A stretch of DNA of 64,000 nt from a virus, in the IMG/VR virus record IMGVR_UViG_3300045988_149468, positions 75,803 to 139,802 of that record; one strand, written 5' to 3'. The translations under genes were made by a program, and so were the position numbers. Below the pieces are notes generated by a model, which was not told where the DNA came from, searched no databases, and saw only the letters and a list, made by a program, of their open reading frames with translations. Below, piece after piece: positions 9,044-62,844 of the stretch (position 1 is its first letter; every line of letters starts with the position of its first letter).

Positions 9044-9424
9044 TTAATCTGTTGTATCTTGTATCATTTCAATTATATATTTCTCTGGTATTGTGTTAAT
9101 TTCTATAAGATTTTGACAAGCTCTAATACCAACAAAGAAAAATATTATAACTATTATTGGCGTGATTACAGCACAACCTATTGTTATTACATCATCATAA
9201 TATGTATCTTCTGACCATTTAATAAGTTTGACAGACAAATATATAGATATTATTATTGTTAATATTGATATAACTAACCAAAATATACTAGTGTAAGTTA
9301 TATATTTAGTTATTCTAACCATTAAATCTTGTAAGTAAGGAATTATATTACTTGATGACCAATCAATTGCTATTCCGAACTTATCACATATATGATCTAA
9401 AACTTTAATCGCTTCATTACTCAT
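9044..9424 (-). CDS. membrane protein, unknown function
   Basis: Two long hydrophobic segments. SD aaggaggg precedes the ATG. Confidence 0.45.
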   Translation of the reverse strand: MSNEAIKVLDHICDKFGIAIDWSSSNIIPYLQDLMVRITKYITYTSIFWLVISILTIIISIYLSVKLIKWSEDTYYDDVITIGCAVITPIIVIIFFFVGIRACQNLIEINTIPEKYIIEMIQDTTD

Positions 9425-9436
9425 ATTTAACCCTCC

Positions 9437-9706
9437 TTATATTGTAGGTTTGAAATCTCTATTGTAAGCTGATATAAATTCACTAACATCTCTAATTAAC
9501 CATTCTTTTTCATATTTACCTCTTGAAAACATAAACCAATCTACTTTTTTATTATTTCTCCATACTTCTATATAATTTGATTCAGTAGAAAATATTGAAT
9601 CTAAAGCTTTCATTGGATTTTCTGTAACTCTTAATACTTCCCAATCGTCACAAGGTGAAGAATACATACAAACATAAGTTGTTGTACATTTATCTTTATC
9701 AATCAT
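9437..9706 (-). CDS. hypothetical protein
   Basis: Internal ATG 9706 follows SD aagggag and avoids overlap with the upstream gene. The track ORF extends to 9799. Confidence 0.45.
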   Translation of the reverse strand: MIDKDKCTTTYVCMYSSPCDDWEVLRVTENPMKALDSIFSTESNYIEVWRNNKKVDWFMFSRGKYEKEWLIRDVSEFISAYNRDFKPTI

Positions 9707-9719
9707 CACAAACACTCCC

Positions 9720-10133
9720 TTATTCATCATCTTCTGATTTAAACACCATAGTGTGACCTTTATTTTCCGTTGAATAATCATTAACGGTAGTACCATCAAG
9801 TACTGTACTAAATCCTAAATCTTTTTTATTTAACACCTCACATGATGTTGTTACACATTCTATGCTTTCACCTAATAGAGAATTTAAAAACAAATCTACA
9901 TCATCAATTAAATATTTTTGTTTAAATTTATGACCTCTAAATACAATATCTAAATTAGATTTTCTAACTACTATTGGTTCTGGTATTTTTAACTTTAATT
10001 CTCTTGCTACATCTTTAATATGTTTAGCTTGATATTCAGTATGACAAAGTATTGGATATTCCATTCTAGCACTACGTTTTACTAAAAAGTATGTTTTACC
10101 TCTGCCTCTATCTAAATTTACTATTTCCATCAT
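9720..10133 (-). CDS. hypothetical protein with P-loop-like GRGKT near the N-terminus
   Basis: LDRGRGKTYF motif. Too short (137 aa) to assign a family. Confidence 0.35.
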   Translation of the reverse strand: MMEIVNLDRGRGKTYFLVKRSARMEYPILCHTEYQAKHIKDVARELKLKIPEPIVVRKSNLDIVFRGHKFKQKYLIDDVDLFLNSLLGESIECVTTSCEVLNKKDLGFSTVLDGTTVNDYSTENKGHTMVFKSEDDE

Positions 10134-10162
10134 TTATTTCCCTCCATATTTGTTTAAATTAA

Positions 10163-10360
10163 TCATTGTTTTCTTCCTTTCATTTTCCTTTCTTCTAGTA
10201 TTATTTCTCCAATTATATAAGAAAGATATATCCCTAATGCTATAAATAATAAATTACTACCTATTTTAGTTGAAAAACTAAAAAATATAAATGCTGTTAT
10301 AAGAATTATTGGTATTGATCCAATTATAATAGCTTGAATTATTTGTTTAAATTTATTCAT
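10163..10360 (-). CDS. small membrane protein
   Basis: Two hydrophobic helices; co-oriented and packed with neighbours. Confidence 0.4.
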   Translation of the reverse strand: MNKFKQIIQAIIIGSIPIILITAFIFFSFSTKIGSNLLFIALGIYLSYIIGEIILEERKMKGRKQ

Positions 10361-10649
10361 TATTTAATTCCTCCAATGGTAATATCTCTTCTAATAAATA
10401 AAAATCAGATTGTTTAGCTAAATCATAATCTATTATTTCATCTCTTACAAATTTAATAAATTCTTTATCAACTTCTCCAAATTCTAATAGTTTAACAGTA
10501 CTTTCATCAGATGATTCTATTTTATTAACTAAACCATTTGTTAATTTATTCGCTGTAACTAAGGCTTTTGTTAATGATTTTAATTCACCACTTTCTTCCA
10601 TATCTATTGCTGAAAAATCACATTGACCATTAACGTATATTATCTTCAT
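10353..10649 (-). CDS. hypothetical acidic protein
   Basis: SD aaaggag. No motif recognised. Confidence 0.4.
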   Translation of the reverse strand: MKIIYVNGQCDFSAIDMEESGELKSLTKALVTANKLTNGLVNKIESSDESTVKLLEFGEVDKEFIKFVRDEIIDYDLAKQSDFYLLEEILPLEELNNE

Positions 10650-10702
10650 TCTTATCTCCTTTCTAAAAATAAATCTCTATTTCATAATCTTTTAAATTAT
10701 TG

Positions 10703-10927
10703 TCAACTATTTTTATTTTCATATTCTAATATTTTATTAAGAACATCAGTTTGTATATCTTGAAAAATATCTAATCTAATTTTTAATTTCTCTATTTCTT
10801 TATTCAAACATTCTCTTAACTCACTTGATATACTATAGCCTAAAAGATTCTCCATAGCCTTTATTTTATTCTTTATTGGGTCTTGCTTTCTTTCAAATAA
10901 ATTATTCATTTCATTATATAAGATCAT
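10703..10927 (-). CDS. hypothetical coiled-coil protein
   Basis: ATG 10927 follows SD aaaggag. The track N-terminal extension overlaps the small upstream ORF. Confidence 0.4.
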   Translation of the reverse strand: MILYNEMNNLFERKQDPIKNKIKAMENLLGYSISSELRECLNKEIEKLKIRLDIFQDIQTDVLNKILEYENKNS

Positions 10928-13501: not shown

Positions 13502-13602
13502 CTCCTTCCTTATTAATTATTATATTTGATTATTTATTATTGAATAAGGATTTAATTAAAAATATTAACAATAATATTAATAAATATAATAAACCTTTCA
13601 TT

Positions 13603-14358: not shown

Positions 14359-14410
14359 ATAACTACCCCTTTCTGGAGGGAATTACCCTCCTTATTAATT
14401 TATATATTGT

Positions 14411-14620: not shown

Positions 14621-14652
14621 TATATCAGCTCCTTATTAATTTCTATATTAAT

Positions 14653-14681
14653 ATAATAACATAAATGGTATTTATTGTCAA
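14653..14681 (-). promoter_or_regulatory. sigma-A-type promoter, cassette copy
   Basis: Minus strand reads TTGACA, 17 nt, TATTAT, then attaatatagaaattaataaggag and ATG 14620. Confidence 0.65.
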
Positions 14682-14687: not shown

Positions 14688-15185
14688 TTATGAAATATAT
14701 TCAAATTCATAATCATAATTATTTGCTTTTTTACCTTTCAATATTGAAGTTATTGTTTTTCTATTCAATTTCAATTCATTAGCACAAGAACGTATTGATT
14801 TAAATATAAATTCTTCTCCTGTAATTTTATGAATTGCTTTAACACCACATCTATATGTGCTTCTGTATAAATTAGAATCATATGAGTGTTGTGTATTTTT
14901 ACTATTAGAAATCCATTCTAAATTTTTAGCATTATTATTTAATTTGTCCCCATCTATATGATTGACCATGCAATTTATATTTGTCTTACCTTCCACAAAT
15001 GCTTCAGCTACTAATTGATGAACTCTTTTATAACATCTTTTCTTATCTTTTCTCAATATTACTTGTTTGTACCCCACATTATCAACCCATTGACATAATT
15101 CTTTTTCTTTAGTTTTAACTCTAGATATCACTATTCCATCATCTGTTATATAATAATTTGGAAAACCTATTATTTCTTTTATCAC
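14688..15185 (-). CDS. HNH homing endonuclease (NUMOD4 / HNH_3 type)
   Basis: IIGFPNYYITDDG (NUMOD4-like) and VNHIDGDKLNNNAKNLEWISNSKNTQH (HNH). GTG 15185 is the likely start; the track ORF starts at TTG 15233. Confidence 0.7.
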   Translation of the reverse strand: MIKEIIGFPNYYITDDGIVISRVKTKEKELCQWVDNVGYKQVILRKDKKRCYKRVHQLVAEAFVEGKTNINCMVNHIDGDKLNNNAKNLEWISNSKNTQHSYDSNLYRSTYRCGVKAIHKITGEEFIFKSIRSCANELKLNRKTITSILKGKKANNYDYEFEYIS

Positions 15186-15353
15186 ATTTAATACCCCACT
15201 CAATATTATATTAATTAAATCCCTCCTACCCAACCCTTTAAATTATTAACTATATAATTTAATCATCATTAATTTGGATAATTGTTTTTCTAAAGTGTTA
15301 ACTATTTGATGCATAAAATCCACCTCCTATTATTAATTTATATATTTAAAATA

Positions 15354-17642: not shown

Positions 17643-17673
17643 ATAATCACTCCTTATTAATTAATATATTGAA

Positions 17674-18053: not shown

Positions 18054-18070
18054 ATAACCACCTCCTATTA

Positions 18071-18460
18071 TTAATTATTTATATACCAATCACCAAATAT
18101 TTCGTTATGACTAAACATATGAAGTTCTGTTATCCATTTATTATATTCTGTATCAAAGTAAAATACACTTTCATTTCTATTAGGTGAAGTTATATATTTT
18201 GTTCCACTATAACAACTTTCTATCTCTTTCCCTTCTTTTAAGGATTTCATAGCCTCTTCAAAAGTATATTTTTTCTTGTCTAATATAAATATATCATTTA
18301 AACTAACACCAATATCCTTATATTCATCATCAAATTTAAATATTATACTGTTATAGGTTTTTTGAATTTTTGTTAATCTTTTATTTTTGTATTTATTAAG
18401 CCAAATTTCACCATCATTAATTGTATTTATTACTTCTTGAAATGTTTTTTCAACTACCAT
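18071..18460 (-). CDS. DUF2829-like (Tad2-family-like) protein, two tandem half-repeats
   Basis: YTFEEAMKSLKEGKEIES ... EIFGDWYINN fits the F.EA...LK.GK ... DW.I pattern of DUF2829. The N-terminal half (KTFQEVINTINDGEIW) is a weaker copy. Confidence 0.35.
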   Translation of the reverse strand: MVVEKTFQEVINTINDGEIWLNKYKNKRLTKIQKTYNSIIFKFDDEYKDIGVSLNDIFILDKKKYTFEEAMKSLKEGKEIESCYSGTKYITSPNRNESVFYFDTEYNKWITELHMFSHNEIFGDWYINN

Positions 18461-18595
18461 TTTGACCTCCTATTATTAATTTCTATATTGAATATATAAG
18501 TATTTCAAGGTATAAACACCTTATGAACTTTTTTGAAAGCCCTAAAATCGCTTTTAGACAGTAGCTATTTTTAGTGTTTATACCAAATTATTTAA

Positions 18596-18901: not shown

Positions 18902-19243
18902 TTAATTTAAAAATATAGAATCAATTATATCAGATATGTTTATTAGATCAACATTAGTTGTTTTATCACCAACTAATTTAACTATTATATTTTCTAATAA
19001 ACAATCACAATTCTCTTTGTAATAATTTATTTTAATTTCAAGTTCTTTATCATCACTATAATAATTAGCCTTCATACATGATTGTTGAATTTCTTTAGCA
19101 TTTATAGTTCTGATATCTGTTAATTTTAATTTATATTTTTTAAATAATTTTGTATTTATGGCAAGAAGTTTATTGTATATGTGTAATATATTAATGTTTT
19201 CGTTATATTTAAGTATTATTTTTAATTCATTTTTAGTGTTCAT
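18902..19243 (-). CDS. hypothetical protein
   Basis: Co-oriented. Its start codon abuts the stop of the upstream ORF. Confidence 0.4.
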   Translation of the reverse strand: MNTKNELKIILKYNENINILHIYNKLLAINTKLFKKYKLKLTDIRTINAKEIQQSCMKANYYSDDKELEIKINYYKENCDCLLENIIVKLVGDKTTNVDLINISDIIDSIFLN

Positions 19244-19244
19244 A

Positions 19245-19442
19245 TTAATTCAACAACTGATATGTTGTTTCTCTTTCTACAAAATCATCATATACAATTA
19301 AAACTCCTATTAATTTATCATTTAATTTCATTGGTTTAATATCTAATACTTCTTTTATATTATCTTCTAGCCAATCATTTACTTTTTGTTCTATTTTCTT
19401 TGCACTTTCATCTACTATAAACTTAACTTTCATTATCGTCAC
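19245..19442 (-). CDS. hypothetical protein
   Basis: Preceded by the promoter-leader cassette. Confidence 0.4.
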   Translation of the reverse strand: MTIMKVKFIVDESAKKIEQKVNDWLEDNIKEVLDIKPMKLNDKLIGVLIVYDDFVERETTYQLLN

Positions 19443-19469
19443 CCCTTACTTATTAATTTCTATATTTAT

Positions 19470-19498
19470 ATATTACCATATTTAACATTTATTGTCAA
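19470..19498 (-). promoter_or_regulatory. sigma-A-type promoter, cassette copy
   Basis: TTGACA, 17 nt, TAATAT. The 38 nt downstream are identical to the copy at 28463-28524. Confidence 0.65.
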
Positions 19499-19501
19499 TG
19501 A

Positions 19502-21373
19502 TTATTTTGTAAATTTTTTATATTTTGTTAAAATCATTTCTTTATCTTCTAATTCTATCCATTTGTCACCTTCTTTTTTCTTTTTATTCTTAATTTGATA
19601 TCCTTTAATACTAATCACATCACCTATTTCTAATGGATCTTGCTTAAAATTCTTTTTATATATTTTTACATCTTTTAATTTACCATTTCCTATACCATAT
19701 AAAGTAATTCTAGGTGTGTATTTAGTATTTATATCTGTAATAATACATTTATTTCCCATAGATTTATCTATTATATTACAATTACCACAAAATTCAAAAT
19801 AGGTTTTAATTAATTCTATAGTGTCTGTTCCATTATCCTTAATATGTTTTTCTATTGCAATTAACATTGGTAATATATCAATAAAAATATATTTTTTTTC
19901 TGTTTCTCTTTCAGCATATTTACTAAATATTTTATTTAAGCTAGGATATTTATCTTTTGATAATTGTTTTTTACCATAAAATGTTTGATAAAATTCATAT
20001 ACTTTTAATAGTTTTTGAACACCACCAAATTCACTAAAGAAATTCAATGATATTAATATTGTCATTTGTTTAGAGTTTATTTTTTTACCTATGTCAACTA
20101 ATAATTCTACAAAAGAATTATAATTATTATCTTTTAAAGAATATAATAATTCACCTGCATTTTTATTTAAGTTTTTAATTGATTTTATACCTTTATATAT
20201 AGAATTGCTCTCTCTATCTAAAAAATATTCAGATCTGGAAAATCTAAATTTAGGATTTTTAATTTCTATATTGAAATATTCCATTTCTTTGGTCAATCTA
20301 GCAGTTCTTTCAGTATCATCTTCATATTCATTTAATGCTACGGTATAATATTCTAAAGGATAATGAGATTTTAAATAAGCACCATATAAACTATCATAAG
20401 CGTAAGATAAAGAGTGACTAGCATTAAAACTGTAATGAGAGGCATTTTCAATTACTTGCCATGTTTCATTAAAACCTTCCTCTTTTCCTACCACATTGAT
20501 CCAACCTTTTTTTAATTTAATTTTTAATTCTTCTAATTCTTTTTCTTTAAACTTCTTTTTGCTAATTTTTTTAATTATTGTATATGTTTCACTTTCATCT
20601 ATACCTAACCATATCAAATATTTCATTATAGATTCTTGATACATAAGGTAATGATAACTATCTTCTAATAAATTATCTAGTTTTTTTACTCCTGTTGTAT
20701 ATTCTTTTCTTTCTATAAAATTATTTAATAAAGATGCAAATCCTGGTCTAATAGAGGCTACAAAAGCCGACATTTCTGCCAAACTTTTAGGTTTATATTT
20801 CATTATTAAATCAGTAGCAAATTTACTATCAGCTTGATTTATAGAACAGGTTAATCCTTTCTCATATATATTCCATGTTTTATCATCTAATAATTTTGAT
20901 AATTCAGTAGTCGTAGGTATTAAAATATTTGCTAATTTACAAACATCTTTTATAATTTTCCATATACTAACTTGTAAAATGTCATTTTTAAGATATTTAT
21001 ATTTATCACAATTAATTCCATCTATATTGCAAACAAATACATCTCCCGCTTTTAATAAACCTATCTCCTCACTTATAGGTTGAGATAATAATAAAGTAGA
21101 ACATGGACTTTGTGATACAGATTCTATTGTTCCGACAAAGTGCTTACTCTCTTCAATTATTTTGTTCCAATTCTCATCATCTATATAATTATCTAAATCT
21201 TTTGCTACTTCATTATAATCATTAATATTTAATCCTATTGCTTTACAATACAATCTAAATGCACTAGCTTTTTGCAAAGGTTTAAAACTTAACATCCAAT
21301 GACAATTATCTTCACCTAATAATTTCTTTGAAGCATCAATAAATGGTTGTTGTTCAGCAACATTTGTATCCAC
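19502..21373 (-). CDS. dnaE: DNA polymerase III alpha subunit, exon 2 (palm/fingers to C-terminus)
   Basis: Begins VDTNV, continuing the PD|VD catalytic motif of exon 1. FNASHSLSYAYDSLYGAYLKSHYPLEYY matches the DnaE FNKSHSAAYA...AYLKAHYP motif. Confidence 0.75.
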   Translation of the reverse strand: MDTNVAEQQPFIDASKKLLGEDNCHWMLSFKPLQKASAFRLYCKAIGLNINDYNEVAKDLDNYIDDENWNKIIEESKHFVGTIESVSQSPCSTLLLSQPISEEIGLLKAGDVFVCNIDGINCDKYKYLKNDILQVSIWKIIKDVCKLANILIPTTTELSKLLDDKTWNIYEKGLTCSINQADSKFATDLIMKYKPKSLAEMSAFVASIRPGFASLLNNFIERKEYTTGVKKLDNLLEDSYHYLMYQESIMKYLIWLGIDESETYTIIKKISKKKFKEKELEELKIKLKKGWINVVGKEEGFNETWQVIENASHYSFNASHSLSYAYDSLYGAYLKSHYPLEYYTVALNEYEDDTERTARLTKEMEYFNIEIKNPKFRFSRSEYFLDRESNSIYKGIKSIKNLNKNAGELLYSLKDNNYNSFVELLVDIGKKINSKQMTILISLNFFSEFGGVQKLLKVYEFYQTFYGKKQLSKDKYPSLNKIFSKYAERETEKKYIFIDILPMLIAIEKHIKDNGTDTIELIKTYFEFCGNCNIIDKSMGNKCIITDINTKYTPRITLYGIGNGKLKDVKIYKKNFKQDPLEIGDVISIKGYQIKNKKKKEGDKWIELEDKEMILTKYKKFTK

Positions 21374-22715
21374 CCTTTATACCGTAGCTTTCGCTATACT
21401 TTAACACTTATTTAAAAGTCGGAGTAGACTATACCATCAACGTTGATATTATCTCGGTTGCCTCTTGGTAGTCGTTGCGACCTTCCCATATCTTTCATTA
21501 GACTTAGGGCTGTGTCTCAAGATTGCCCAATCCTTAATCTTGTTACTATACCTAATTAGTTAAATTAGCCATACTTCGGTTTCCCTAGTACTTAGTAATT
21601 AAGGCTCTAAGGGGTTTCCTTGATATTCGAGGTTTTCATTATATATCACTATATAATGCGACTATTTTATTATTATATATGTTTTATTATTTATAAAAAT
21701 TTCAGAGGATTCTTTTAATATTCTTTTTATTTTCTTTAATCCTAATCCTGTTTCTTTTTGTAACTCAGGATACCCATAATAAAATTTATTGTCTTCTTTA
21801 CAAAGAAATATATTATAATTACATTTACAATTTTTATAGAATACTATCAATTCTTCCCATAATTTCTCTTTATTAACAACATAATCATCGTCTATTTCTT
21901 TAAAATGATATGCTTTTATCGTTACTCTACTTCTATTAAGTATCCCTACGTTATTGTTATATTTTTCTTTTGCAAATTTTATACATTTAAAAATTTCACC
22001 AGTCTCTAAACATACTACTCTTTTTGCCATGCCATGTTCTTCATTTTTTAAACCATTGTTTTTCATGAATTCGCTAAATTTTTTCTTCTTTTCTTCACTC
22101 CAATAGTTTCCATAATTAGGGTTATTCTCACCATCATATTTGCCTAATTTTATTTCTCTAGCATGATTTTTCATTTCTTTAGTCCAGTAATGAGCATAAT
22201 TAGGATTATTTTCTCCTTTAACTATATCTGATATTTTATTTCTAAATTCCTCACTTTTGTAAACACTATCTTCATTTGTTCTTATTTCAATCATTTTTCT
22301 TCTGAAATCTTCATCTTCCCATCTTTTCTTCGATAATTCTCCTTGTTTCTTCTTCCACTCTTCATCTGGTTTCCATCCAGATACTCCTTCTCCCCCATCG
22401 GTTTGATTTGTTAATCTATATTCGGGATAATGTTCTCTATAATATTTAATTAATGCTCTTTCATATTTAAAAGCCTCATCTTCTTTTAAATTATCTATTT
22501 TAATTCTAAAGTTACAATTATGGGTATTATACATATCTTTAAAGAATTTATTTCTTCCCGATACAGTTTCAGCCCTTCTTTCTTTCCCTTTCCCTACATA
22601 AAAAACTTCATCTGTATCTACTATAAACCATTCATAAATATAATAATTATTCATTTTTTTCACCTCCTTTCTTAATTATCTTTATTTAAATAAAACATAT
22701 ATAATAATTATGTTA
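21374..22715 (-). mobile_element. group I intron carrying a GIY-YIG homing endonuclease ORF, inserted in dnaE
   Basis: A 1342-nt interruption falls exactly between the codons for PD and VD. The 288 nt after the ORF (21374-21661) are conspicuously GC-richer and contain R-like GAGACACAGCC and S-like GGTATAGTCT core elements. The last intron base is G and the last exon-1 base is U. Confidence 0.65.
21662..22654 (-). CDS. GIY-YIG homing endonuclease (intron-encoded) with NUMOD3-like repeats
   Basis: YIYEWFIVDTDEVFYVGKGKERR is a GIY-YIG motif. GENNPNY[AG].YW[ST] repeats three times. ATG 22654 follows SD aaaggagg. Confidence 0.75.
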   Translation of the reverse strand: MNNYYIYEWFIVDTDEVFYVGKGKERRAETVSGRNKFFKDMYNTHNCNFRIKIDNLKEDEAFKYERALIKYYREHYPEYRLTNQTDGGEGVSGWKPDEEWKKKQGELSKKRWEDEDFRRKMIEIRTNEDSVYKSEEFRNKISDIVKGENNPNYAHYWTKEMKNHAREIKLGKYDGENNPNYGNYWSEEKKKKFSEFMKNNGLKNEEHGMAKRVVCLETGEIFKCIKFAKEKYNNNVGILNRSRVTIKAYHFKEIDDDYVVNKEKLWEELIVFYKNCKCNYNIFLCKEDNKFYYGYPELQKETGLGLKKIKRILKESSEIFINNKTYIIIK

Positions 22716-23918
22716 ATCGGGTAATGATTTACTCTGTAATATTCTTGTTGTACTCATAAATCTTGAAGGATATAACGTAATTGGTGAATCAAGTCTATCC
22801 AATGAAGTGAATCCTAATAATTTATTAATATAGAAACTAGGGGCTGAACCTCTCGAACTTTTTGTTATTATTCCATGATATTCAGTTGTAGCTAATTTTA
22901 TCATCTTATAATTTATTAAAAAATATTCAGCCATATTAGTATCTTTTATGACTTGCCATTCATCTTTTATAGCTTGTATATATTCATCTTTTCTGTTTAG
23001 ATTTATATTATTTAGTTCCTTTTTAAATTCTTTTTCTATTATTTCACCTAATTCTTTATTAGGATTATTTGATATATGGGGCATTTTTATATCATCATCA
23101 AACTGTATTCCTTCATATTTATCAAATATAAGAGTATTGTCTAACGCTTGTTTAATTTGTTTATCTGTCAATATACCTTGTTCTCTATATCTTTGAACAA
23201 CTGTTTTATAATTTGGATAATCTAATATAAAATTATTTTCATCTTCATAATTTATACCTTTAGCATGAAGAAATAAATCTCTATATTTGCTATCTTCAGG
23301 TTTTATATAATGGGAATCATTAGCATGAATAATTTGTATATTGTATTTATCTGCATATTCTAATAATCTTTTATTATATATCTTTTGTATATCTACATTA
23401 TGATTTTGAACTTCTAAATAAAAATTATCACCAAAATATTCTTTCATTTTAATTATCCATTCTTCAGAACCTTCAATATTTCTAAGTCTTGAAGCAACAC
23501 AAGCAGTAGTAATTATAACGTCATTAGGATTTAAATTAAACAATAATTCGTTATCTATTCTTGGTTTATAATAATATCCAGTTATATTTGCTTCGGATAA
23601 TATTTTATTAAGTTGTTTTCTTCCATTATTATTTAAAGCTATTATAACTAAATGGTAATTAGATTTATCTTTTTTGTATCTATCTTCTACATAATAAACT
23701 TCTGCACCGATCATAAGTTTTAATCCATTTTCTTTACACAATGTATAAGCTTCATATACATTGCCTTGATAACCATGTTCTGTTGTAAAATAAATCCCTT
23801 TATCACCATCCAATTCTTTAATCCTATTAATATAATCTATTGGCTTAACTATTACATCTAAACTTCTTAAATTAGAATAATGTGTATGTTTATGATAATT
23901 ATTATAACGATATTCCAA
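22716..23918 (-). CDS. dnaE: DNA polymerase III alpha subunit, exon 1 (PHP domain to catalytic PD)
   Basis: YHKHTHYSNLRSLD...FTTEHG is a PHP domain. It ends ...RFMSTTRILQSKSLPD, aligning to the DnaE motif FERFLNPERVSMPD(IDID). TTG start 23918; an in-frame TAA at 22713-22715 belongs to the intron. Confidence 0.75.
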
Positions 23919-23953
23919 TTCTTATTCACCACCTTATTAATTATTATATTTAT

Positions 23954-23982
23954 ATTATATATCTATTGCCAAAATTTGTCAA
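23954..23982 (-). promoter_or_regulatory. sigma-A-type promoter of dnaE, cassette copy
   Basis: TTGACA, 17 nt, TATAAT, then ataaatataataattaataaggtgg. Confidence 0.65.
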
Positions 23983-28461: not shown

Positions 28462-28495
28462 TAATTATCAACTCCTTATTAATTTCTATATTTAT

Positions 28496-43454: not shown

Positions 43455-43508
43455 TTGAATCTCACCTCTTATTAATTATTATACTTATATTATATCACAT
43501 CCTATTAA

Positions 43509-46043: not shown

Positions 46044-46059
46044 TTTGTCTATTCTCTTT

Positions 46060-47725: not shown

Positions 47726-47798
47726 TTTATTCCACCTCATAATAAAAATTCCATTTTAACTGTTTTTAACCCTCCTTATTAATTTCTATGTTAATTAT

Positions 47799-47827
47799 AT
47801 TATAATTTAAAATTTCTAATATGTCAA
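47799..47827 (-). promoter_or_regulatory. sigma-A-type promoter, cassette copy
   Basis: TTGACA, 17 nt, TATAAT, then ataattaacatagaaattaataaggaggg. Confidence 0.65.
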
Positions 47828-48299: not shown

Positions 48300-48445
48300 A
48301 AAGTTATAAACTCGTAATTTTTATTTTATTTCCTTCTTCATTGAATTCTATTTTGCCGAAGCTACTCTAGTTTGGTGTAACTCTCCAAAGGCTTAAATTC
48401 GGGTACAACGCTCCCTACATCAAATTAGTATTTCTCTCCATTCAC
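48300..48445 (-). ncRNA. candidate omega RNA (reRNA) / right-end region of the TnpB element
   Basis: A non-coding stretch immediately 3' of tnpB that is clearly GC-richer than its surroundings (gggagcgttgtacccg, tagcttcggc, two GGAGAG boxes). Position matches where TnpB guide RNAs are encoded. Boundaries are not determined. Confidence 0.35.
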
Positions 48446-49567
48446 CTATACTAATTCGTAATTACTTAAATTAATGCTTGCATTATAATCTCTATTTATT
48501 TCTAAACCACAATGTTTGCATACATAAGTTCTGTCTTTTAATTTCAAGTCTATTTTAATATTTCCACAATTAGAACAAGTTTTGCTTGAAGGATAATATC
48601 TATCTACCTGTATAAATTTAATACCATTCCATTCGCATTTATATTTCATTTGTCTTATAAATTCATATAAACATTGTTCAGCAATAGCTTTTGATAAATG
48701 TTTATTTTTCATCATGCCAACTATATTTAAATCTTCCATAACAACTCTATAAGGTTTTTCATTTACTATTCTTGCAGTTGATTGATGAATATGATTATTT
48801 CTAATATTAGACAAACGTCTATAAATCATTTTAGCTTTATGTTCTAATTTTATAATGTTTTGAGTTTTAACAAACTTATTTCTTTGTTTATTATACTCAT
48901 ACTTTCTTGAAATTTGTCTTTGAGTTCTTTTAAGTTGTTTCTTTAATTTCTTTACTCTTTTAGTTTTATTGATGTTTTTTATTGTTATTCCATTTGAACA
49001 TACAGCAAGTTCTTTAACTCCTAAATCTATGCCGATGCTTAATTTTGGATTTAAGGTAGTTTGGTTTTCTTCTACTTCAACTCCAAAAGATAAATACCAA
49101 TATCTTCCGTCATAACTACAATAAGGATTACTATATTTGCAATTTGGTATCTTATAATTTGTTTTAAATTTTACTTTGCCTATTTTCTCGATATTACAAA
49201 CATTATCCTTAAAGTAAAGAGCATCGTATCTTACATAAAAAGATTGTTTTGATTTTCTTTTTGATTTAAATTTAGGATATTTACTATTCTTTTTAAAAAA
49301 GGATTTAAATGCTTTATCTAAATTTCTCATACTTTCTACCATAGCTGTATTTGAAACTTCATTCAACCATTTATAATCTTCTTGTTTCTTAAGTTGTGTA
49401 AATTCTTTCCTTATATTACTCATTGAATATTTTTCACCTGATTCATAATGTTCATTGCATTTACTCAATGCCCAATTATAAGCGAATCTACTACAACCGA
49501 TTGTTTTAAACATCAATTCTTCTTGCTGTTCTGTAGGAATAAGTCTAATCTTTAATGATTTTAGCAA
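48446..49567 (-). CDS. tnpB: TnpB (IS200/IS605-family OrfB, RNA-guided nuclease), zinc-finger type
   Basis: RuvC motifs GIDLGV, VVMEDLN and RDYNASINL. Zinc finger CSNCG...CKHCG. N-terminal IRLIPTEQQEELM (OrfB_IS605). TTG start after SD aaaggaggtg. Confidence 0.85.
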   Translation of the reverse strand: MLKSLKIRLIPTEQQEELMFKTIGCSRFAYNWALSKCNEHYESGEKYSMSNIRKEFTQLKKQEDYKWLNEVSNTAMVESMRNLDKAFKSFFKKNSKYPKFKSKRKSKQSFYVRYDALYFKDNVCNIEKIGKVKFKTNYKIPNCKYSNPYCSYDGRYWYLSFGVEVEENQTTLNPKLSIGIDLGVKELAVCSNGITIKNINKTKRVKKLKKQLKRTQRQISRKYEYNKQRNKFVKTQNIIKLEHKAKMIYRRLSNIRNNHIHQSTARIVNEKPYRVVMEDLNIVGMMKNKHLSKAIAEQCLYEFIRQMKYKCEWNGIKFIQVDRYYPSSKTCSNCGNIKIDLKLKDRTYVCKHCGLEINRDYNASINLSNYELV

Positions 49568-49607
49568 TTCTTGTCACCTCCTTTATGTTATTAATTATTA
49601 TATTTAT

Positions 49608-49636
49608 AATATATCATAAAATTATTGAAATGTCAA
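49608..49636 (-). promoter_or_regulatory. sigma-A-type promoter, cassette copy, driving tnpB
   Basis: TTGACA, 17 nt, TATATT, then ataaatataataattaataacataaaggagg. Confidence 0.6.
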
Positions 49637-50208: not shown

Positions 50209-50251
50209 TTTATCACCTCCCTTCCTGTTATTAATTAATATATTCATGTTA

Positions 50252-53483: not shown

Positions 53484-53515
53484 ATTATCACCTCCTTATT
53501 AACTTCTATATTCAC

Positions 53516-53544
53516 ATTATATCATAAATTAATAATAAATACAA
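53516..53544 (-). promoter_or_regulatory. extended -10 promoter, cassette copy
   Basis: TTGTAT, 17 nt, TGaTATAAT, then gtgaatatagaagttaataaggagg. Confidence 0.5.
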
Positions 53545-55804: not shown

Positions 55805-55826
55805 AATATCACACCCTTATTAATTT

Positions 55827-56165
55827 CTATATTGATACAATTTCGATATCGTAGTTACTAAATAATCTTTCTACAATTTCCTTAAATTTATTATCGCCTT
55901 CAATATAAATGTCTTTTAAATTACCTTCTAATGCATTTCCAACTATCTTTTCTAATTCTTCCATTGTAGTATTTTTATTTATTACACATTCTCTTTTAAT
56001 ACCTAATATTTCATCAATTTGATCTTGTTTGTAAAATCTTCTATTTGTTGGACTTCTATAAGCTACTAATTTATTAGATTTCTCCCAATTAATAAGGGTT
56101 TTTGTTGTTACGCCTAAAATCTTAGCTACATCCTTTGGTTTGTAAATTGTTTCACTATTATTCAT
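55827..56165 (-). CDS. MerR/excisionase-type HTH protein
   Basis: YKPKDVAKILGVTTKTLINWEKSNKLVAYRSPTNRRFY. ATG 56165 follows SD ggagga. Confidence 0.55.
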   Translation of the reverse strand: MNNSETIYKPKDVAKILGVTTKTLINWEKSNKLVAYRSPTNRRFYKQDQIDEILGIKRECVINKNTTMEELEKIVGNALEGNLKDIYIEGDNKFKEIVERLFSNYDIEIVSI

Positions 56166-58465: not shown

Positions 58466-58494
58466 TTTATTATCCCCCTTATTAATTAATATAT

Positions 58495-59088: not shown

Positions 59089-59161
59089 CTTATTTTCCCC
59101 CTTATTAATTTCTATGTTTATAATATTTTTACTAAAAATTTTTATTAATTATTATATTTAT

Positions 59162-59190
59162 ATTATATCCTATAAAACTGTTTTTGTCAA
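59162..59190 (-). promoter_or_regulatory. sigma-A-type promoter, cassette with split leader
   Basis: TTGACA, 17 nt, TATAAT, then ataaatataataattaataaaaa. About 30 nt later comes a second element, aacatagaaattaataaggggg. Confidence 0.6.
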
Positions 59191-60487: not shown

Positions 60488-60535
60488 GTTATTTTCACCT
60501 CCTTTCTTTTATTAATTTTTATATAATATATTTTT

Positions 60536-60799: not shown

Positions 60800-60825
60800 T
60801 AGTTATCCCCCTCGTTAATTATTAT

Positions 60826-61680
60826 TTATTTTATTAGATCTTTATCAAAAATTTCACGATAAGTTCTATAAAATTCTATTGCATTCATCTTTATGTTGTT
60901 ATCTTTAAAATATCTTTCTATTTTGGACAAAGTCCATTCGATATTTTCTGAAATTTCTTTTTCATGTAAAGTGTATAGTATTCCACTTTTCACAAGATTT
61001 CTAGCAGATAACATTATATTATCTCCGTATTCCTCGTCATAATATTTCGATAATTTCATTAGTCTTTGCTGGATACTGCAAAGAGACATAATGTTCATAC
61101 CATTATTATTACTTTTTATACATCTTGATTTTAGCAAATATGGATTTTCCATGTTAAACTCCATATATGAATACTTTCCATTCTTATAAGTTTGATAAGC
61201 ATACGCTAATCTTGTTCCCCTTACATACTTTTGCATGACTTCGTCACATATAAATTTTTTACCATTTATTATTATATAACTATCATCTCTTGCTATGTCG
61301 GAAAGTTTAATTTTTCTTAAATCAATTAGTTCTTTTCCAGATATACCATGCCACAAAGCATACACTATAAATCTGTCCATAGAATTTGAAAAAGTATTAC
61401 ATAGATTTATTACTTCTTCTTTTGTGAATAAATTTTTTTCATCTGATTTTACACATTCGTTAACATATTTAGTGCTATCGAATTGATAATTAATATTTAG
61501 ATCATTTTTCAAGATATCGTTATATATTTTGATATTTGTATAAAATGAACTCCTATTAAATGTTTTCAGATATTTGTATATAAAATCTTCTAATGTGTTT
61601 GTTGTTATTTCCTTAAAATGTCCTAGATAATCTATTAAATATCCTTTAGTTCTTTCCCTTTTCACATCGTAATCTTTCAT
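60826..61680 (-). CDS. recombinase-like protein lacking recognisable catalytic residues
   Basis: FIVYALWHGISGKELIDLRKIKLSDI resembles the Arg-I box region of tyrosine recombinases, but no Arg, HxxR or terminal Tyr box is visible. ATG 61680 follows SD aaggagg. Confidence 0.3.
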   Translation of the reverse strand: MKDYDVKRERTKGYLIDYLGHFKEITTNTLEDFIYKYLKTFNRSSFYTNIKIYNDILKNDLNINYQFDSTKYVNECVKSDEKNLFTKEEVINLCNTFSNSMDRFIVYALWHGISGKELIDLRKIKLSDIARDDSYIIINGKKFICDEVMQKYVRGTRLAYAYQTYKNGKYSYMEFNMENPYLLKSRCIKSNNNGMNIMSLCSIQQRLMKLSKYYDEEYGDNIMLSARNLVKSGILYTLHEKEISENIEWTLSKIERYFKDNNIKMNAIEFYRTYREIFDKDLIK

Positions 61681-61720
61681 TTTAACCTCCTTACCCCTCA
61701 TAATTAGAGGGATATTATTT

Positions 61721-62665
61721 TTACTTAACCTTTTTATTATTAATCTCTATATTTTCATTTTTCTTATTATTAAAGTATGGGTTATTATCCCAAATATCAT
61801 CGTCAGCAGTTTGTGGATGATAATAAAAAGAAAAACAAGTGTTCATATTACTATGACCCATCAATTTACTGACTTTTTCTATTGGTACACCTGATTCAAC
61901 TAATGCTGTTCCAAAACCATGTCTGAATAAGTGTGTATGCATATTATCTATACCTATTCTTTCACCATATTTCTTGAACACATCATTTAAATTTGCTGAA
62001 TACATATGTTTTCCATTTTTACTTACTAATAAATAATCCTCTTCAGTATCAATTTGATTTCTATAATAAAGATAGTTATGATATAAACTAAGTAATTCTT
62101 TATTCAGTTTAATTTCCCTACTTTTAGAATATTTACCAGTTGTTGTGAAAACACCAGTTGTAAAGTTTATATCGTTCATTTTAATATCTCTTATTTCTTG
62201 TGATCTTAATCCAGTTCCTACAGTTAAACTAAGGATAAAATAATTTCTCATTGTAAGAAAATTTGGATTTTCTTCATAATCTAGTTTAGCTTCATTAATC
62301 ATATTTTTTATATCCCTTGGATCAATAGCTTTATCTGTTTGTTTTATTTTATATCTTTTTAAATCACTTGCTGGATTATAATCTATTAATCTTCTACCTT
62401 TTAGATAATTTAAAAAACTTTTAATAGAAACAATTCTAAGATTTAATGATTGACCACTAAGATTATCTATATCTCTTTTAACATTTAACCAATCTTCTCT
62501 CATAGTAACATAATCTAGTTCTTTTATATCATCTAATGTTTTTATGTGTAAATATTTAAAACATTCTTTTATATTTTTTAAATATTTACTTACTGTTTTT
62601 TCATATGATCTTTGTTCAGATATTACTAAGTATTCGGCATATTCATTTAATAATTTTTCTAACAT
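61721..62665 (-). CDS. tyrosine recombinase (XerC/D-like), second copy
   Basis: GTGLRSQEIRDIKMNDI, TGKYSKSREIKL, HTHLFRHGFGTAL (HxxR), MGHSNMNTCFSFYYH (His/Tyr). Confidence 0.8.
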   Translation of the reverse strand: MLEKLLNEYAEYLVISEQRSYEKTVSKYLKNIKECFKYLHIKTLDDIKELDYVTMREDWLNVKRDIDNLSGQSLNLRIVSIKSFLNYLKGRRLIDYNPASDLKRYKIKQTDKAIDPRDIKNMINEAKLDYEENPNFLTMRNYFILSLTVGTGLRSQEIRDIKMNDINFTTGVFTTTGKYSKSREIKLNKELLSLYHNYLYYRNQIDTEEDYLLVSKNGKHMYSANLNDVFKKYGERIGIDNMHTHLFRHGFGTALVESGVPIEKVSKLMGHSNMNTCFSFYYHPQTADDDIWDNNPYFNNKKNENIEINNKKVK

Positions 62666-62694
62666 TTTAATTTCCCCTTTCCTTATTAATTAAC

Positions 62695-62723
62695 TTGACT
62701 TATAATTTATTAATTTTTATATT
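62695..62723 (+). promoter_or_regulatory. candidate rightward promoter facing the recombinase promoter
   Basis: TTGACT, 17 nt, TATATT on the + strand. Confidence 0.4.
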
Positions 62724-62726
62724 TAT

Positions 62727-62755
62727 ATAATACTACATTAATTAATATAAGTCAA
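62727..62755 (-). promoter_or_regulatory. promoter of recombinase gene 61721..62665
   Basis: Minus strand TTGACT, 17 nt, TATTAT, then ataaatataaaaattaataaa and a second element ttaattaataaggaaagggg. Confidence 0.55.
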
Positions 62756-62844
62756 TATAAAATTTAAAACTTTTTCAAAAATATTTTTCCTACATTATAT
62801 ATAATATAAAAAAAACAAAAATCTAATTAATTTAATGAAAACAG

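Follow-up and report, generated by a model that had tools for sequence, protein, structure and literature searches.

What purpose is served by an AT-rich sequence that recurs between promoter and Shine-Dalgarno (SD) sequence throughout the early genes of a phage? The question is raised by a 64,000-nt stretch (the window) of the 139.8-kb sequence of an uncultured phage from the human gut. The nearest isolates are c-st and phiCD211. Sequence comparison places the phage among the temperate SPβ/c-st-like phages, and the gene set matching SPβ includes Sak4-like, DnaB, primase, Pol III, RNR, dUTPase, YopX, Ant and resolvase genes.

A repeated block downstream of early promoters

The repeated promoter-leader box reported in an initial annotation is real and was understated (Table 1). 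Its core is a 16-nt block, ATATA-NN-AATTAATAA (i.e., ATATANNAATTAATAA), with 25 exact matches vs 0.13 expected in a shuffled control, and 46 vs 3.4 (maximum 7) when one mismatch is allowed. For AATTAATAAGGAG, 17 matches with at most one mismatch were found, all 17 on the minus strand, vs 1.07 expected (maximum 4 in 100 shuffles). The block is bipartite, 5 and 9 nt flanking a free 2-nt centre, which leaves 14 fixed bases; with conserved flanks it spans approximately 18–24 nt. Its orientation is nearly always that of the local gene.

At each of the 18 promoter spans of the initial annotation, hexamers resembling -35 and -10 elements are separated by exactly 17 nt and the leader comes next; one more cassette, whose -10 element is extended (43469-43517), had been missed. 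The block begins exactly 4 nt past the -10 hexamer in 17 of the 18 listed copies and 7 nt past it in one, and the offset is again 4 nt in the added cassette (n = 19). Some listed spans have off-consensus -35 hexamers (TTGTAT at 53516, TTGAAA at 4331, TTGACT at 62727 and TTGACG at 42753). The identity shared by 19443-19498 and 28463-28524 extends over 39 nt, not 38 as first counted. Taken as a whole, promoter-like matches are about as frequent as expected (154 vs 152), and only near-perfect ones are cassettes. Seven sites match 11 of the 12 hexamer positions and lack a block; five lie within coding sequences and two are intergenic (4197 and 63801).

Table 1 Block copies and associated genes in the window. 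Cassettes consist of a -35 hexamer, 17 nt, a -10 hexamer and the block; 12/12 denotes perfect hexamers.
Feature	Position	Strand	Details
Cassette	4331-4379	+	-35 TTGAAA; ahead of tyrosine-recombinase gene; sole copy in structural-gene region
Two blocks (8881, 8949)	8881-8964	-	gene-free tail, past last leftward gene and its terminator
Block, no promoter	13510-13525	-	directly 5' of SD
Block	14392-14407	-	then hairpin GGAGGGtaattCCCTCC, then SD
Cassette	14633-14681	-	TTGACA-17-TGnTATTAT, 4 nt, block ATATAGAAATTAATAA, GGAG
Block, no promoter	15330-15345	-	with TAGGAGGTGG
Block, no promoter	17654-17669	-	with GGAG; ahead of ribonucleotide reductase gene
17-nt variant, 3-nt centre	18068-18084	-	ahead of SD
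Block, no promoter	18473-18488	-	ahead of SD
Cassette	19450-19498	-	TTGACA-17-TAATAT; 39-nt run shared with 28476 cassette
Cassette	23934-23982	-	12/12; ahead of Pol III alpha N-terminal gene; preceded by terminator 24026-23997
Two tandem blocks	27105-27142	-	at stop codon of gene 27130-27993; no convincing gene start behind
Cassette	28476-28524	-	
Cassette	33436-33484	-	12/12; block GTATAATAATTAATAA; GGAG
Block and terminator	33504-33541	-	block 33526-33541, directly followed by intrinsic terminator hairpin GAGGTGGATAATTATCCGCCTC and T-run; no gene behind
Block 2 of Sak4-like gene leader	34643-34658	-	SD-proximal, degenerate AAATATTAGTTAATAA
Block 1 of Sak4-like gene leader	34684-34699	-	gene 33536-34624
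Second block of leader	35850-35865	-	SD-proximal; from cassette 35889-35937
Cassette	35889-35937	-	promoter-proximal block, then long G-rich leader
Cassette	36121-36169	-	
Cassette	39316-39364	-	12/12
Block, no promoter	40148-40163	-	abuts AP2/HNH gene stop codon; ClpP-like gene next
Block, no promoter	41623-41638	-	ahead of sigma-factor gene 40945-41607
Cassette	42733-42781	-	TTGACG; ahead of Rha-like gene
Cassette	43469-43517	-	weak -35 TTAAAA, extended -10 TGaTATAAT; ahead of sigma-factor gene 42765-43454
Cassette	47776-47827	-	12/12; sole block 7 nt, not 4 nt, past -10
Cassette	49588-49636	-	ahead of TnpB gene
Block, no promoter	50228-50243	-	then 6 nt, then SD
Cassette	53496-53544	-	weak -35 TTGTAT, extended -10
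Block, no promoter	55817-55832	-	ahead of SD; homology with relative stops 3 nt past block
Block, no promoter	58479-58494	-	ahead of SD
Second block of leader	59102-59117	-	SD-proximal; from cassette 59142-59190
Cassette	59142-59190	-	12/12; promoter-proximal block, no SD behind it
Block, no promoter	60509-60524	-	ahead of TnpB gene SD
Candidate block reader	60826-61680	-	284-aa MrpR/SroF(YopR)-like protein, recombinase fold
Tyrosine integrase-like gene	61721-62665	-	directly upstream of MrpR-like gene
Block, 1 mismatch	61737-61752	-	over final codons of integrase-like gene; MrpR-like gene 56 nt downstream
Second block of leader	62683-62698	-	SD-proximal, degenerate TCAAGTTAATTAATAA; from cassette 62707-62755
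Cassette	62707-62755	-	-35 TTGACT; promoter-proximal block; promoter of integrase-like/MrpR-like operon
Cassette	62845-62893	+	divergent arm; 2 mismatches, TTATAGAAATCAATAA
Block, no promoter	32046-32061	-	abuts AP2/HNH gene stop codon; DnaB next
Cassette	63201-63249	+	
Cassette	63934-63982	+	12/12; SD not directly behind block

Copies lacking a promoter

Approximately 16 copies lie directly 5' of SD sequences within operons and have no promoter; their cores are 8–21 nt (mode 12) from the start codon. The remaining copies precede terminators or lie in the 3' tail. The leader-only examples of the initial annotation are genuine, 18058-18085 being the 17-nt variant, as are its two long leaders with two blocks each. 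Two more such leaders (35889/35850 and 34684/34643) had been overlooked, together with the pre-terminator copy (33526-33541) and the 3' tail copies (8881 and 8949). ATG 15314, behind block 15330-15345, is the probable true start of the gene ending at 14688.

Block and GGAG are 0–7 nt apart, and some of the copies are not accompanied by an SD, so that the block is separable from the SD. Moreover, promoter-proximal blocks are retained even where an SD 40–60 nt away has its own copy (59142, 62707, 35889 and 63967), indicating that the site is tied to the promoter and not to translation only.

This arrangement bears on a sigma-dependent element, one of the roles first suggested. Two sigma-70-family genes are present in the window, other phages are known to have early and middle promoters in tandem, and the box "dialects" of related lineages would suit a phage-encoded sigma factor. 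It is nevertheless scarcely credible that the block is a middle promoter placed behind the one read by the host, since with such a block-GGAG gap transcription would begin in or past the SD. In addition, promoter-less copies have no conserved second element upstream, the counterpart of the invariant -11A is a variable N of the block, and pre-terminator copies would be senseless as promoters. No terminators stand ahead of the promoter-less copies, which hence need no promoter.

Some blocks adjoin mobile genes. Three AP2/HNH paralogues end immediately ahead of a block, every TnpB gene seen lies directly behind one, and AP2/HNH genes occur in lineages with the AATTAATAA motif but not in lineage C. 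The main reason for the conservation of the block might thus be that selfish elements (homing endonuclease genes of the AP2/HNH type and TnpB insertion sequences) home beside it and use it as target or flank. We regard this as very improbable: of the more than 45 copies, only about 7 lie next to such genes, a fixed distance to the -10 hexamer would not be expected, and the association would be explained equally well if the elements made use of a sequence that is abundant between genes.

Constraint and distribution

The block is under strong constraint. Compared with a relative of approximately 90% identity, only 2 of 262 block positions differ (0.8%), vs 11.9% of third codon positions and 17.6% of promoter spacer positions. 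The initial view that the conserved sequence past the SD serves specific recognition, and is not a ribosome-binding sequence, is borne out by this difference (0.8% vs 12–18%), by strand specificity and by separability from the SD. Blocks are limited to early and replication genes; no block precedes any of 15 tail genes (L064), a single gene of the 14 in L018 has one ahead of it, and the divergent early arm features approximately 9 cassettes in 10 kb.

Related lineages use differing dialects of the box. In lineage B, a related motif is mostly linked to SDs and found behind stop codons, at no constant distance from promoters, which counts against an operator. In lineage C, the AATTAATAA half is absent and a conserved promoter spacer is found instead, resembling the TAGACA-type SPBRE promoters of SPβ. 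TATAAT-ATAAATATA, the half nearer the promoter, is found again in promoters of lineage C and phiCD211, so that part of it is a general clostridial start-site context. This would suit a cassette that works with host RNA polymerase and ribosomes alone, the block providing an optimal initial transcribed sequence and a standby or enhancer stretch that lacks G/C and structure and is maintained because strong early expression is selected for. Copies would have been spread or homogenised by recombination (PeSL-like), and the phage encodes a Sak4-type annealase and an exonuclease. GC content upstream of genes is 8% with and 18% without a block, and homology with relatives often stops 3–12 nt past blocks (58478, 55814, 47764, 33425, 28472 and 17650). 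However, breakpoints fall at blocks in approximately 30% of cases while 35–40% of gene boundaries carry a block, and are thus not in excess. The block makes no difference to the predicted accessibility of the SD and translation initiation region (p = 0.5), and a stretch required only to be AU-rich and unstructured could do without 14 fixed bases at 0.8% divergence. The block is not used by the late structural genes, whose expression is presumably high, lineage C manages without the AATTAATAA half, and there is nothing to express behind pre-terminator copies. Overall, a factor-independent role appears unlikely.

It is similarly doubtful that the block is primarily an RNA signal, bound or cut by a phage translational repressor or endoribonuclease. 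As the first ~14 nt of primary early mRNAs and an intercistronic element, it could serve to shut off or process early messages in a RegA/RegB-like manner, or make processed 5' ends identical to primary ones. Such a role would account for the strict co-orientation, for the confinement of sites to intergenic DNA that is transcribed (5' UTRs, gaps between cistrons and pre-terminator positions), for the promoter-less copies 0–7 nt from SDs and for the restriction to early genes. Lineage dialects suit a phage-encoded reader, and pre-terminator copies suit cleavage that strips a protective 3' hairpin. Yet the exact 4-nt offset from the -10 hexamer is left unexplained, as is a motif of c-st at a fixed 18–19 nt upstream of -35 in five promoters; lying outside the transcript, the latter indicates a constraint at the DNA level. 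No Rfam family was found at the blocks, and no RegB/RegA-like, RNase or RNA-binding family for the 75 small proteins appears among the families listed (25 of 31 Pfam, 25 of 91 PHROG). The analogy first drawn with T4 RegB, which cuts at GGAG, is thus unsupported; moreover, the block is not GGAG and some copies lack any SD. RNA processing or a translational operator may still operate at the ~16 promoter-less, SD-proximal copies. Of the roles first listed, a regulator acting on DNA is now the best supported.

A candidate repressor

A predicted reader of the block is encoded at 60826-61680. Precomputed annotation assigns PF22823 (MrpR_C_cat) to this 284-aa protein and seven homologues, whereas local hmmscan found no Pfam family in it. 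The protein matches phi3T SroF (9rd5/9rgl) with E = 4.5e-5 in phmmer and E = 6e-6 in a profile search; SroF itself matches SPβ YopR at 5e-36, and direct hhalign comparison of the 284-aa protein with YopR gave E = 0.038 (probability 1.4%). A Foldseek search with a predicted model (pLDDT 68) ranked SroF first and MrpR fourth and fifth, at TM-scores of approximately 0.3. The Arg-I position reads GISGKE, resembling the EVSG of MrpR. The 284-aa protein is thus remotely homologous to the master repressor of the SPβ family, MrpR/SroF. Its synteny with the integrase-like gene is conserved, and the pair compares with yopP...yopR in SPβ.

We favour the reading, for which the case is about evenly balanced, that the block is a predicted SPBRE-type operator of this putative repressor. 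Enrichment, strand bias, the fixed 4-nt offset, constraint and early-gene restriction argue for it, as do SPβ/c-st membership, the MrpR/SroF-like protein and the identical placement of the MrpR box in SPβ. The cassette would comprise two layers. The promoter layer, TTGACA-17-(TGn)TATAAT, would be a strong early promoter of the host sigma-A type, with transcription probably starting, given the geometry, at the A seven nt past the -10 hexamer, within ATATA. The block layer would dock the 284-aa protein as a clamp at about -2 to +14 of every early promoter, blocking initiation or escape, so that some 25–30 strong promoters would be silent in the prophage or plasmid state. The 5+9-nt site with its free centre, spanning about one helical turn, fits a monomer contacting successive grooves, as in the SroF structure. 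The ~16 intra-operon copies, past stop codons and ahead of SDs, and the pre-terminator copies may be extra binding sites that stop read-through transcription in an orientation-dependent manner, similar to L5 stoperators.

Comparison with known systems

Recombinase-like master repressors with dispersed boxes are an established type of system that has yet to be described in phages of the clostridial type. MrpR and SroF of SPβ and phi3T adopt a catalytically dead tyrosine-recombinase fold and act as monomeric DNA clamps at long, asymmetric, AT-rich, lineage-specific boxes at many dispersed early promoters. SroF reads up to 24 bp, and the SPβ and phi3T boxes differ. A YopR homologue is also present in c-st. 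In SPβ, ChAP-seq shows MrpR on SPBRE at approximately 10 early promoters. All bound SPBREs are promoter-associated, in contrast to the ~16 promoter-less copies found here, for which L5 stoperators offer a model without precedent in SPβ. The block is 4–5 times as numerous as SPβ boxes and has no sequence in common with either SPBRE or the phi3T box. However, SPBREs re-derived in SPβ are always gene-oriented and, in yopV, yopM and yonX, lie between the -10 hexamer and GGAG; the block has the same geometry. SPBRE, which likewise abuts the SD, is a proven DNA operator.

Phage type and gene content

The window, which has a GC content of 25%, matches a 139.8-kb human-gut metagenome contig, and every gene between 9044 and 62665 lies on the minus strand. 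Replication and nucleotide genes encode RNR, a split Pol III alpha, DnaB, a primase, a Sak4-like annealase, ThyX and a dUTPase; YopX, a RuvC-like resolvase, a PD-(D/E)XK exonuclease and two sigma-70-family factors are also encoded. The regulators are Rha, Ant/Bro proteins, MerR and HTH_3, and the mobile-element genes comprise several HNH/AP2/GIY-YIG endonucleases, two TnpB, an ISL3 transposase and tyrosine recombinases. No tRNA genes were found in the window.

By Pol III, the nearest cultured phages are C. botulinum c-st and C. difficile phiCD211/phiCDIF1296T (58-59%); a Pol III profile run against genomes retrieved only relatives at 42-57%, in various Firmicutes assemblies, one of them within a 626-kb contig. 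The c-st replication genes are annotated as homologues of SPβ YorF/I/J/L, and SPβ has the same gene set as the window. Because of the Pol III kinship to c-st and phiCD211 and the shared replication genes, the phage, as judged by gene content, belongs to the broad SPβ-like group and is of clostridial type. It is very probably temperate, and its host is probably a Clostridium-like gut bacterium. The Pol III alpha gene, which is a single gene in c-st and SPβ, is here split into an N-terminal PHP gene and a C-terminal gene, with a 330-aa gene between the two halves.

The repeated block and its orientation

A 16-nt repeat, ATATA-NN-AATTAATAA (hereafter the block), occurs in 25 exact copies in the window, versus 0.13 expected from dinucleotide shuffles; when one mismatch is allowed, the copies number 46, versus 3.4 expected and a shuffle maximum of 7. 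The core fused to the Shine-Dalgarno (SD) sequence, AATTAATAAGGAG, is matched 17 times (1.07 expected), on the gene strand in all 17 cases. The shuffle control thus shows enrichment over background, and all 18 spans at which a promoter-plus-leader unit with exact 17-nt spacing had been placed carry -35-like and -10-like hexamers as well as the leader. Conservation of the leader beyond the SD, as first described, holds, and the block is separable from the SD. The first observation is confirmed and extended.

Since copies also occur away from any gene start, the block is an autonomous, transcription-oriented unit and not an SD extension. With one exception, the copies have the orientation of the local gene or of local transcription, and the block is therefore, like SPBRE, the SPβ box, a long, asymmetric AT-rich sequence that recurs in gene orientation at intergenic sites far apart. 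A literature search found no papers on the motif string, and no known RNA family was found at the blocks.

Promoter-linked copies

In nineteen cases the block comes after a sigma-70-type promoter, many of these promoters having a TGn extended -10, and the two together form a cassette (TTGACA-17-TATAAT-type promoter plus block). The block starts exactly 4 nt after the -10 in 18 of these copies and 7 nt after it in the other one. By the usual 7-nt rule from the -10, transcription would start inside ATATA, and the block would constitute the first ~14 nt of the mRNA. Like SPBRE-type boxes, the 19 copies overlap or adjoin sigma-A early promoters. Promoter sites were also picked by hexamers alone, ignoring the block: all near-perfect promoters located directly upstream of a co-oriented gene carry it. 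Seven other 11/12 hexamer matches do not, five of which are inside coding sequences and two of which are intergenic (4197, 63801). As a class, promoter-like matches are not in excess (154 versus a shuffle expectation of 152).

Copies without a promoter

About 16 copies have no recognisable promoter. They are located directly after the upstream stop codon, or overlap it, 0-7 nt 5' of the SD. No conserved sequence was found upstream of these copies, and no terminators precede them; they are therefore intra-operon. A sigma-dependent element had been among the options first listed. As a promoter for a phage sigma factor, the least probable of the readings weighed here, the block is rejected both on geometry and because the promoter-less copies have no terminators ahead of them.

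The distance from block to start codon ranges from 8 to 21 nt. Extended pairing with the anti-SD was discarded, as block and GGAG are separated by a variable distance (0-7 nt) and not every copy has an SD after it. A role as anti-structure insulator was discarded as well, since predicted SD/TIR accessibility is equal for genes with and without the block. That the block is part of a factor-independent expression cassette, in which promoter, block and SD would need no reader, is rather unlikely. The promoter-less copies may reflect an RNA-level function, by analogy with the start-associated sequences (SAS) of Cluster K phages. For the block as a whole, an RNA-level signal read by a phage factor has a low probability. 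No RegB-like family is present among the Pfam and PHROG families listed, and the conserved element here is distinct from the GGAG at which T4 RegB cleaves early SDs.

Some long leaders carry one block close to the promoter and a second one at the SD, and copies are also found directly ahead of terminators (see table). The latter order recurs in relatives (L018 3837; L065 7822 = L066 7021), and compensatory changes are found in the terminator hairpin of the L065/L066 site.

Other features of the leaders and tails are as follows. Two G-rich leader segments, conspicuous in a 25% GC genome, each have a block on either side, one segment preceding gene 34704-35831 and the other the Sak4-like gene (33536-34624), and could be G-quadruplex-like or protein-binding leaders. 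A gene-free tail of ~400 nt consists of a terminator (GGGTTATCaattaCGATAACCC-TTTT) directly 3' of gene 9044-9424, two blocks, ~230 nt and then a second terminator, and could correspond to a small transcription unit of its own or to a non-coding RNA. For the gene that ends at 14688, the probable start is ATG 15314, which is preferred over the TTG/GTG starts of simple ORF calling because it is in frame and is preceded by a block and TAGGAGGTGG.

Positions of block-associated and neighbouring features. Coordinates refer to the window unless another sequence is named.
Feature	Position	Strand	Remark
Cassette fragment, 30-bp			TATAATATAAATATAGAAATTAATAAGGAG
Block, then terminator hairpin directly	33526-33541 + 33525-33504	-	
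Tandem block pair	27105/27127		
Two blocks in gene-free 3' tail	8881, 8949		
Gene-free tail	8632-9043	-	second terminator 8649-8632
Long leaders, promoter-proximal block and second block at SD	59142/59102, 62707/62683, 35889/35850		
Further two-block leader	34684/34643		
G-rich leader segments	~35866-35888, ~34660-34683	-	GGGATTGGTTGGGTGGG and TAGGGTGGAAGAGGTTGGG
Gene with probable ATG start	14688-15345	-	block 15330-15345
Split Pol III alpha	19502-23918	-	PHP gene 22713-23918; intervening gene 21662-22654; C-terminal gene 19502-21373
ISL3 transposase and HTH_3 genes	44730-46554	-	HTH_3 at 46060-46554
Paralogous AP2-domain (HNH-type) genes	28655-29437, 32062-32844, 40164-40943; relative contig L065 5225-5983	- (window)	64-75% nucleotide identity
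RAGATH-18 RNA	48330-48391	-	TnpB gene 48446-49567
Hairpin 5' of MrpR-like gene	61699-61716	-	CCCTCtaattatGAGGGG
Inverted repeat, 10-nt	62690-62760		TTGACTTATA...TATAAGTCAA
c-st repeat AAAATTAAATTAAA upstream of TTGACA promoters	L083 (c-st) 6329, 9690, 25326, 25501, 29063		conserved AATATTTTAAAA linker
phiCD211 direct repeats	L090 (phiCD211) 19130-19500		AAATGACCGTAT(N6)CTCCGTACTTAACA

Constraint and distribution

Constraint was assessed in a 22 kb orthologous alignment of the window and IMG/VR 3300045988_132453, a mosaic relative with 68-96% nucleotide identity. Divergence at the 14 specified positions of the block is 2/262 (0.8%), and none of the 38 NN positions differ; the corresponding values are 11.9% for third codon positions, 17.6% for promoter spacers, 9.9% for the SD zone and 5.2% for other intergenic DNA. 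The spacers of different cassettes in the window are unrelated to each other and have diverged from those of the relative far more than the blocks have, and recent duplication was thus rejected as the source of block identity. Because the spacers are unrelated, this identity reflects either selection or homogenisation limited to the block.

The block characterises the early and replication region. It is absent from 15 tail/baseplate genes upstream of the window (L064), save the cassette of a recombinase gene, and precedes the SD in one of 14 genes in L018, a sequence of the relative. The divergent arm past the window end carries ~9 cassettes in 10 kb.

Recombination and mobile elements

Homology with relatives often stops a few nucleotides after block and SD, and six of ~19 segments end 3-12 nt after a block. 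Breakpoints at blocks (~30%) do not exceed the share of gene boundaries that carry one. A recombination hot spot beyond the general gene-boundary effect is therefore not supported, and the homology ends near blocks look like a consequence of having the cassette at gene starts and give no evidence of a dedicated role. AP2/HNH and TnpB genes adjoin blocks, as they would if the block were a target of selfish elements. This reading is nevertheless very improbable, as the adjacency probably stems from elements exploiting an abundant intergenic sequence.

Among these elements, the AP2-domain genes form a paralogous family that is found in lineages with the AATTAATAA motif and is absent from lineage C (L052/L059). 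In the genes at 32062 and 40164, the protein ends in EITD and the stop codon is directly followed by the block. All TnpB genes seen, in the window and in L065, have the block directly ahead of their own strong SD. A RAGATH-18 RNA (Rfam RF03064, 68 bits), located 55 nt 3' of a TnpB gene, probably represents the guide (omega/reRNA) region of a phage-borne IS605-type element. The ISL3 transposase gene and the adjoining HTH_3 (Cro/CI-type) gene are missing from the close relative 132453, and no relatives of the transposase were found in the genome collection.

A candidate repressor

Gene 60826-61680 (minus strand, 284 aa) lies at the divergent control region, directly 3' of an integrase-like gene (61721-62665, minus strand). 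PF22823 (MrpR_C_cat) is present in the precomputed annotation of its product and in 7/7 database homologues. The best PDB sequence match is 9rd5/9rgl, the phi3T repressor SroF (phmmer E=4.5e-5, profile E=6e-6), which itself matches SPβ YopR, another name for MrpR, at 5e-36. BLASTP aligned the protein with SPβ MrpR at 23% identity over 181 residues of the catalytic-like domain. With a predicted model of moderate confidence (pLDDT 68), Foldseek ranked SroF first and MrpR/YopR fourth and fifth, among Xer, IntI and Cre recombinases, with TM-scores of ~0.3. The Arg-I position (GISGKE) has no Arg, and the MrpR equivalent is EVSG. The protein has no Phage_integrase Pfam match, local hmmscan assigned it to no family, and hhalign against YopR alone gave an insignificant E=0.038. 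The hmmscan and hhalign outcomes and the TM-scores weaken the case; the other features point to an encoded repressor of the MrpR/SroF family, with a catalytically inactive tyrosine-recombinase fold, through remote homology.

A homologue with 64% identity has the same box as the window. Scans for MrpR-like proteins paired with other box dialects returned nothing or only 88-98% variants; short contigs showed only the same dialect. The HTH_3 protein was rejected as a reader of the block, being absent from the relative that has the block.

Two structures occur around this operon. A hairpin directly 5' of the SD of the MrpR-like gene is kept in homologous contigs (L087 ~985-1008, with compensatory changes, GTCCTTACtgattaGTAAGGGC; L088 ~378-394) and may control repressor expression. 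An inverted repeat surrounds the promoter and block of the integrase-like/MrpR-like operon and yields a face-to-face plus-strand promoter (62695, TTGACT-17-TATATT) in the divergent control region.

Box dialects in related lineages

Related phages carry other boxes. In lineage B (Pol III 67-69% identical), AAAA(A)TAATTAATAA(A) is found before most SDs and sometimes just 5' of the promoter. In lineage C, the AATTAATAA half is absent, and promoters have a conserved spacer followed by ATAAATATARWAA-GGAG. The c-st phage, which encodes a YopR homologue, has the motif (C)AAAATTAAATTAAA, with 18 core matches in 41 kb and none on the other strand; it occurs before SDs and also, at five promoters, 18-19 nt ahead of the -35, a constant distance. 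A Bacillaceae scaffold/prophage (L069) carries AATTAAATTAATA before SDs. A TTAA-rich core is family-wide: AATTAATAA in the window, AAAATAATTAATAA in lineage B, AAAATTAAATTAAA in c-st and AATTAAATTAATA in the Bacillaceae prophage.

Lineage-specific boxes are the pattern seen in the MrpR/SroF family. The fixed distances, from the c-st motif to the -35 and from the window block to the -10, are DNA-level constraints. Against an operator, SD-linked copies predominate in lineage B.

At least two of the c-st promoters (6329/6428, 25501/25605) have a second copy before the SD, ~45 nt 3' of the -10, and are hence flanked by two repeat copies. In phiCD211, five direct repeats occur in a 350-bp gap just 3' of the MrpR-like operon; considered as an analogue of the block, they turned out to be a local iteron-like array, which may be a plasmid-type origin or partition site.

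Proposed role of the cassette

The MrpR-like repressor lead explains most of the observations. We give about even chances to the cassette combining a strong host-type promoter with an SPBRE-type operator for an MrpR/SroF-like repressor, with the intra-operon copies possibly acting as stoperators. The 60826-61680 protein would bind the block and repress the promoter, as predicted from its family, while the promoter-less SD-hugging copies may serve as stoperator-like roadblocks, for which phage L5 offers a precedent.

More tentatively, and with a fairly low probability, the ~16 SD-hugging intra-operon copies and the family-wide TTAA-rich core would represent a second conserved control layer beyond the operator. 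This layer could take two forms. The recombinase-fold clamp could block elongation in the manner of a stoperator, in which case stoperators would have been invented independently in Firmicutes phages. Alternatively, the block could have a dual use, as a DNA operator in lysogeny and as an RNA translation or processing signal in lytic growth.

Should a recombinase-fold repressor use the block as its operator, the range of the SPβ/arbitrium-type lysogeny switch would reach from Bacillus to uncultured clostridial-type gut phages, among them relatives of c-st (the botulinum-toxin phage) and of C. difficile phiCD211. Box dialect and MrpR-like gene would then form a sequence signature predicting immunity groups and early regulons in metagenomic phages, and the high copy number and intra-operon copies would provide a system in which to ask whether a monomeric DNA clamp stops elongating RNA polymerase. 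A further question is why a TTAA-rich box adjoins ribosome-binding sites across the whole phage family. In practical terms, the cassette may offer a compact, strong and probably repressible promoter and RBS module for low-GC Firmicutes.

Comparison with known systems

In P1, a plasmid prophage, a single repressor (C1) controls many dispersed asymmetric 17-bp operators, and in T5 the strong early promoters have positions +1 to +20 in common, a conserved stretch with GGAG at its end. The P1 C1 operators and T5 downstream regions involve unrelated proteins and sequences and are not known to have promoter-less SD-proximal copies.

The PeSLs of T4-like phages resemble the window in that an early sigma-70 promoter and SD cassette is repeated before many small early genes, and homology between related genomes often stops inside the cassette, with genes swapped behind it (PMC2839356, PMC4122927). 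In contrast, a PeSL by definition has a stem-loop terminator that overlaps the promoter, a combination that the window does not show: the early region yielded only two terminators (33525, 24026), with one cassette downstream of each. PeSLs also have no conserved leader block and are never promoter-less.

The SAS of Cluster K is a repeated asymmetric motif in one orientation, confined to the non-structural half of the genome, located just 5' of the start codons of some genes and sometimes containing the upstream stop codon; an RNA-level function was proposed and never demonstrated (PMC3203893). The SD core is part of the SAS, which is only 3-7 bp away from the start codon, whereas the block precedes the SD and is 8-21 nt away from the start. 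The block further differs in forming the +1 region of every early promoter and in being present at places with no gene after it.

The stoperators of L5 (Cluster A) are asymmetric, transcription-oriented repressor sites in short intergenic spaces (PMC9283540). The block is similarly a short asymmetric site found at early promoters and in many short intergenic spaces, with an orientation that follows transcription. In L5, a monomeric repressor contacts two successive major grooves, and the site sequence evolves with immunity specificity (PMC9283540), features that invite comparison with the MrpR/SroF family. However, the L5 repressor, which blocks elongation depending on site orientation, has another fold (HTH and stoperator domain) and acts in other hosts, and none of this type was recognised among the families listed. 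L5 sites are GC-containing 13-mers in both genome arms, whereas those of the window are AT-only, restricted to the early region and usually immediately 5' of the SD. The parallel is an analogy of mechanism only.

The closest counterpart is the SPβ/phi3T system. MrpR, the SPβ master repressor, has a recombinase fold without recombinase activity, and ChAP-seq showed it bound to the 15-bp SPBRE at ~10 early promoters (PMC10516654). SroF clamps DNA as a monomer and reads a long asymmetric box over as many as 24 bp; its sites are scattered genome-wide, and the phi3T box, CAGTAATTTTATTTTTATTCTTAATG, is unlike SPBRE (bioRxiv 10.1101/2025.11.27.690993). The block resembles neither box; this mismatch is not a strict criterion, because SPβ and phi3T do not share a box sequence either. 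The window contains at least 45 copies, approximately, in 64 kb, versus ~12 in 134 kb in SPβ, and the block has one fixed position (+4 after the -10), whereas SPβ box positions vary. The ~16 intra-operon promoter-less copies and the copies before terminators also set the window apart, and promoter-less SD-hugging copies have no ChAP-seq precedent in SPβ. Finally, the repressor candidate is only a remote homologue of MrpR, for which binding is predicted.

On the other side, SPβ and phi3T are, like the phage studied here, large temperate Firmicutes phages with the replication gene set in common, in which a repeated long asymmetric AT-rich box is always oriented with the downstream gene and changes in sequence from lineage to lineage, and in which a recombinase-fold protein of the MrpR/SroF family is encoded beside an integrase-like gene. 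SPBRE, as re-derived from the SPBc2 record (roughly CAAATACAAAWAATATGTATATA, ~12 copies), is gene-oriented in every case. It forms the promoter spacer and -10 in five sites other than yopV, yopM and yonX, and a single degenerate SPBRE-like sequence lies ahead of the yonO SD. Among the many dispersed sigma-A early promoters with the box, several have it between the -10 and an abutting GGAG: SPBRE abuts the SD in yopM and yonX, and in yopV the order TTGACA-17-TATAGT-ttatt-SPBRE-GGAG is the architecture of the window's cassette.
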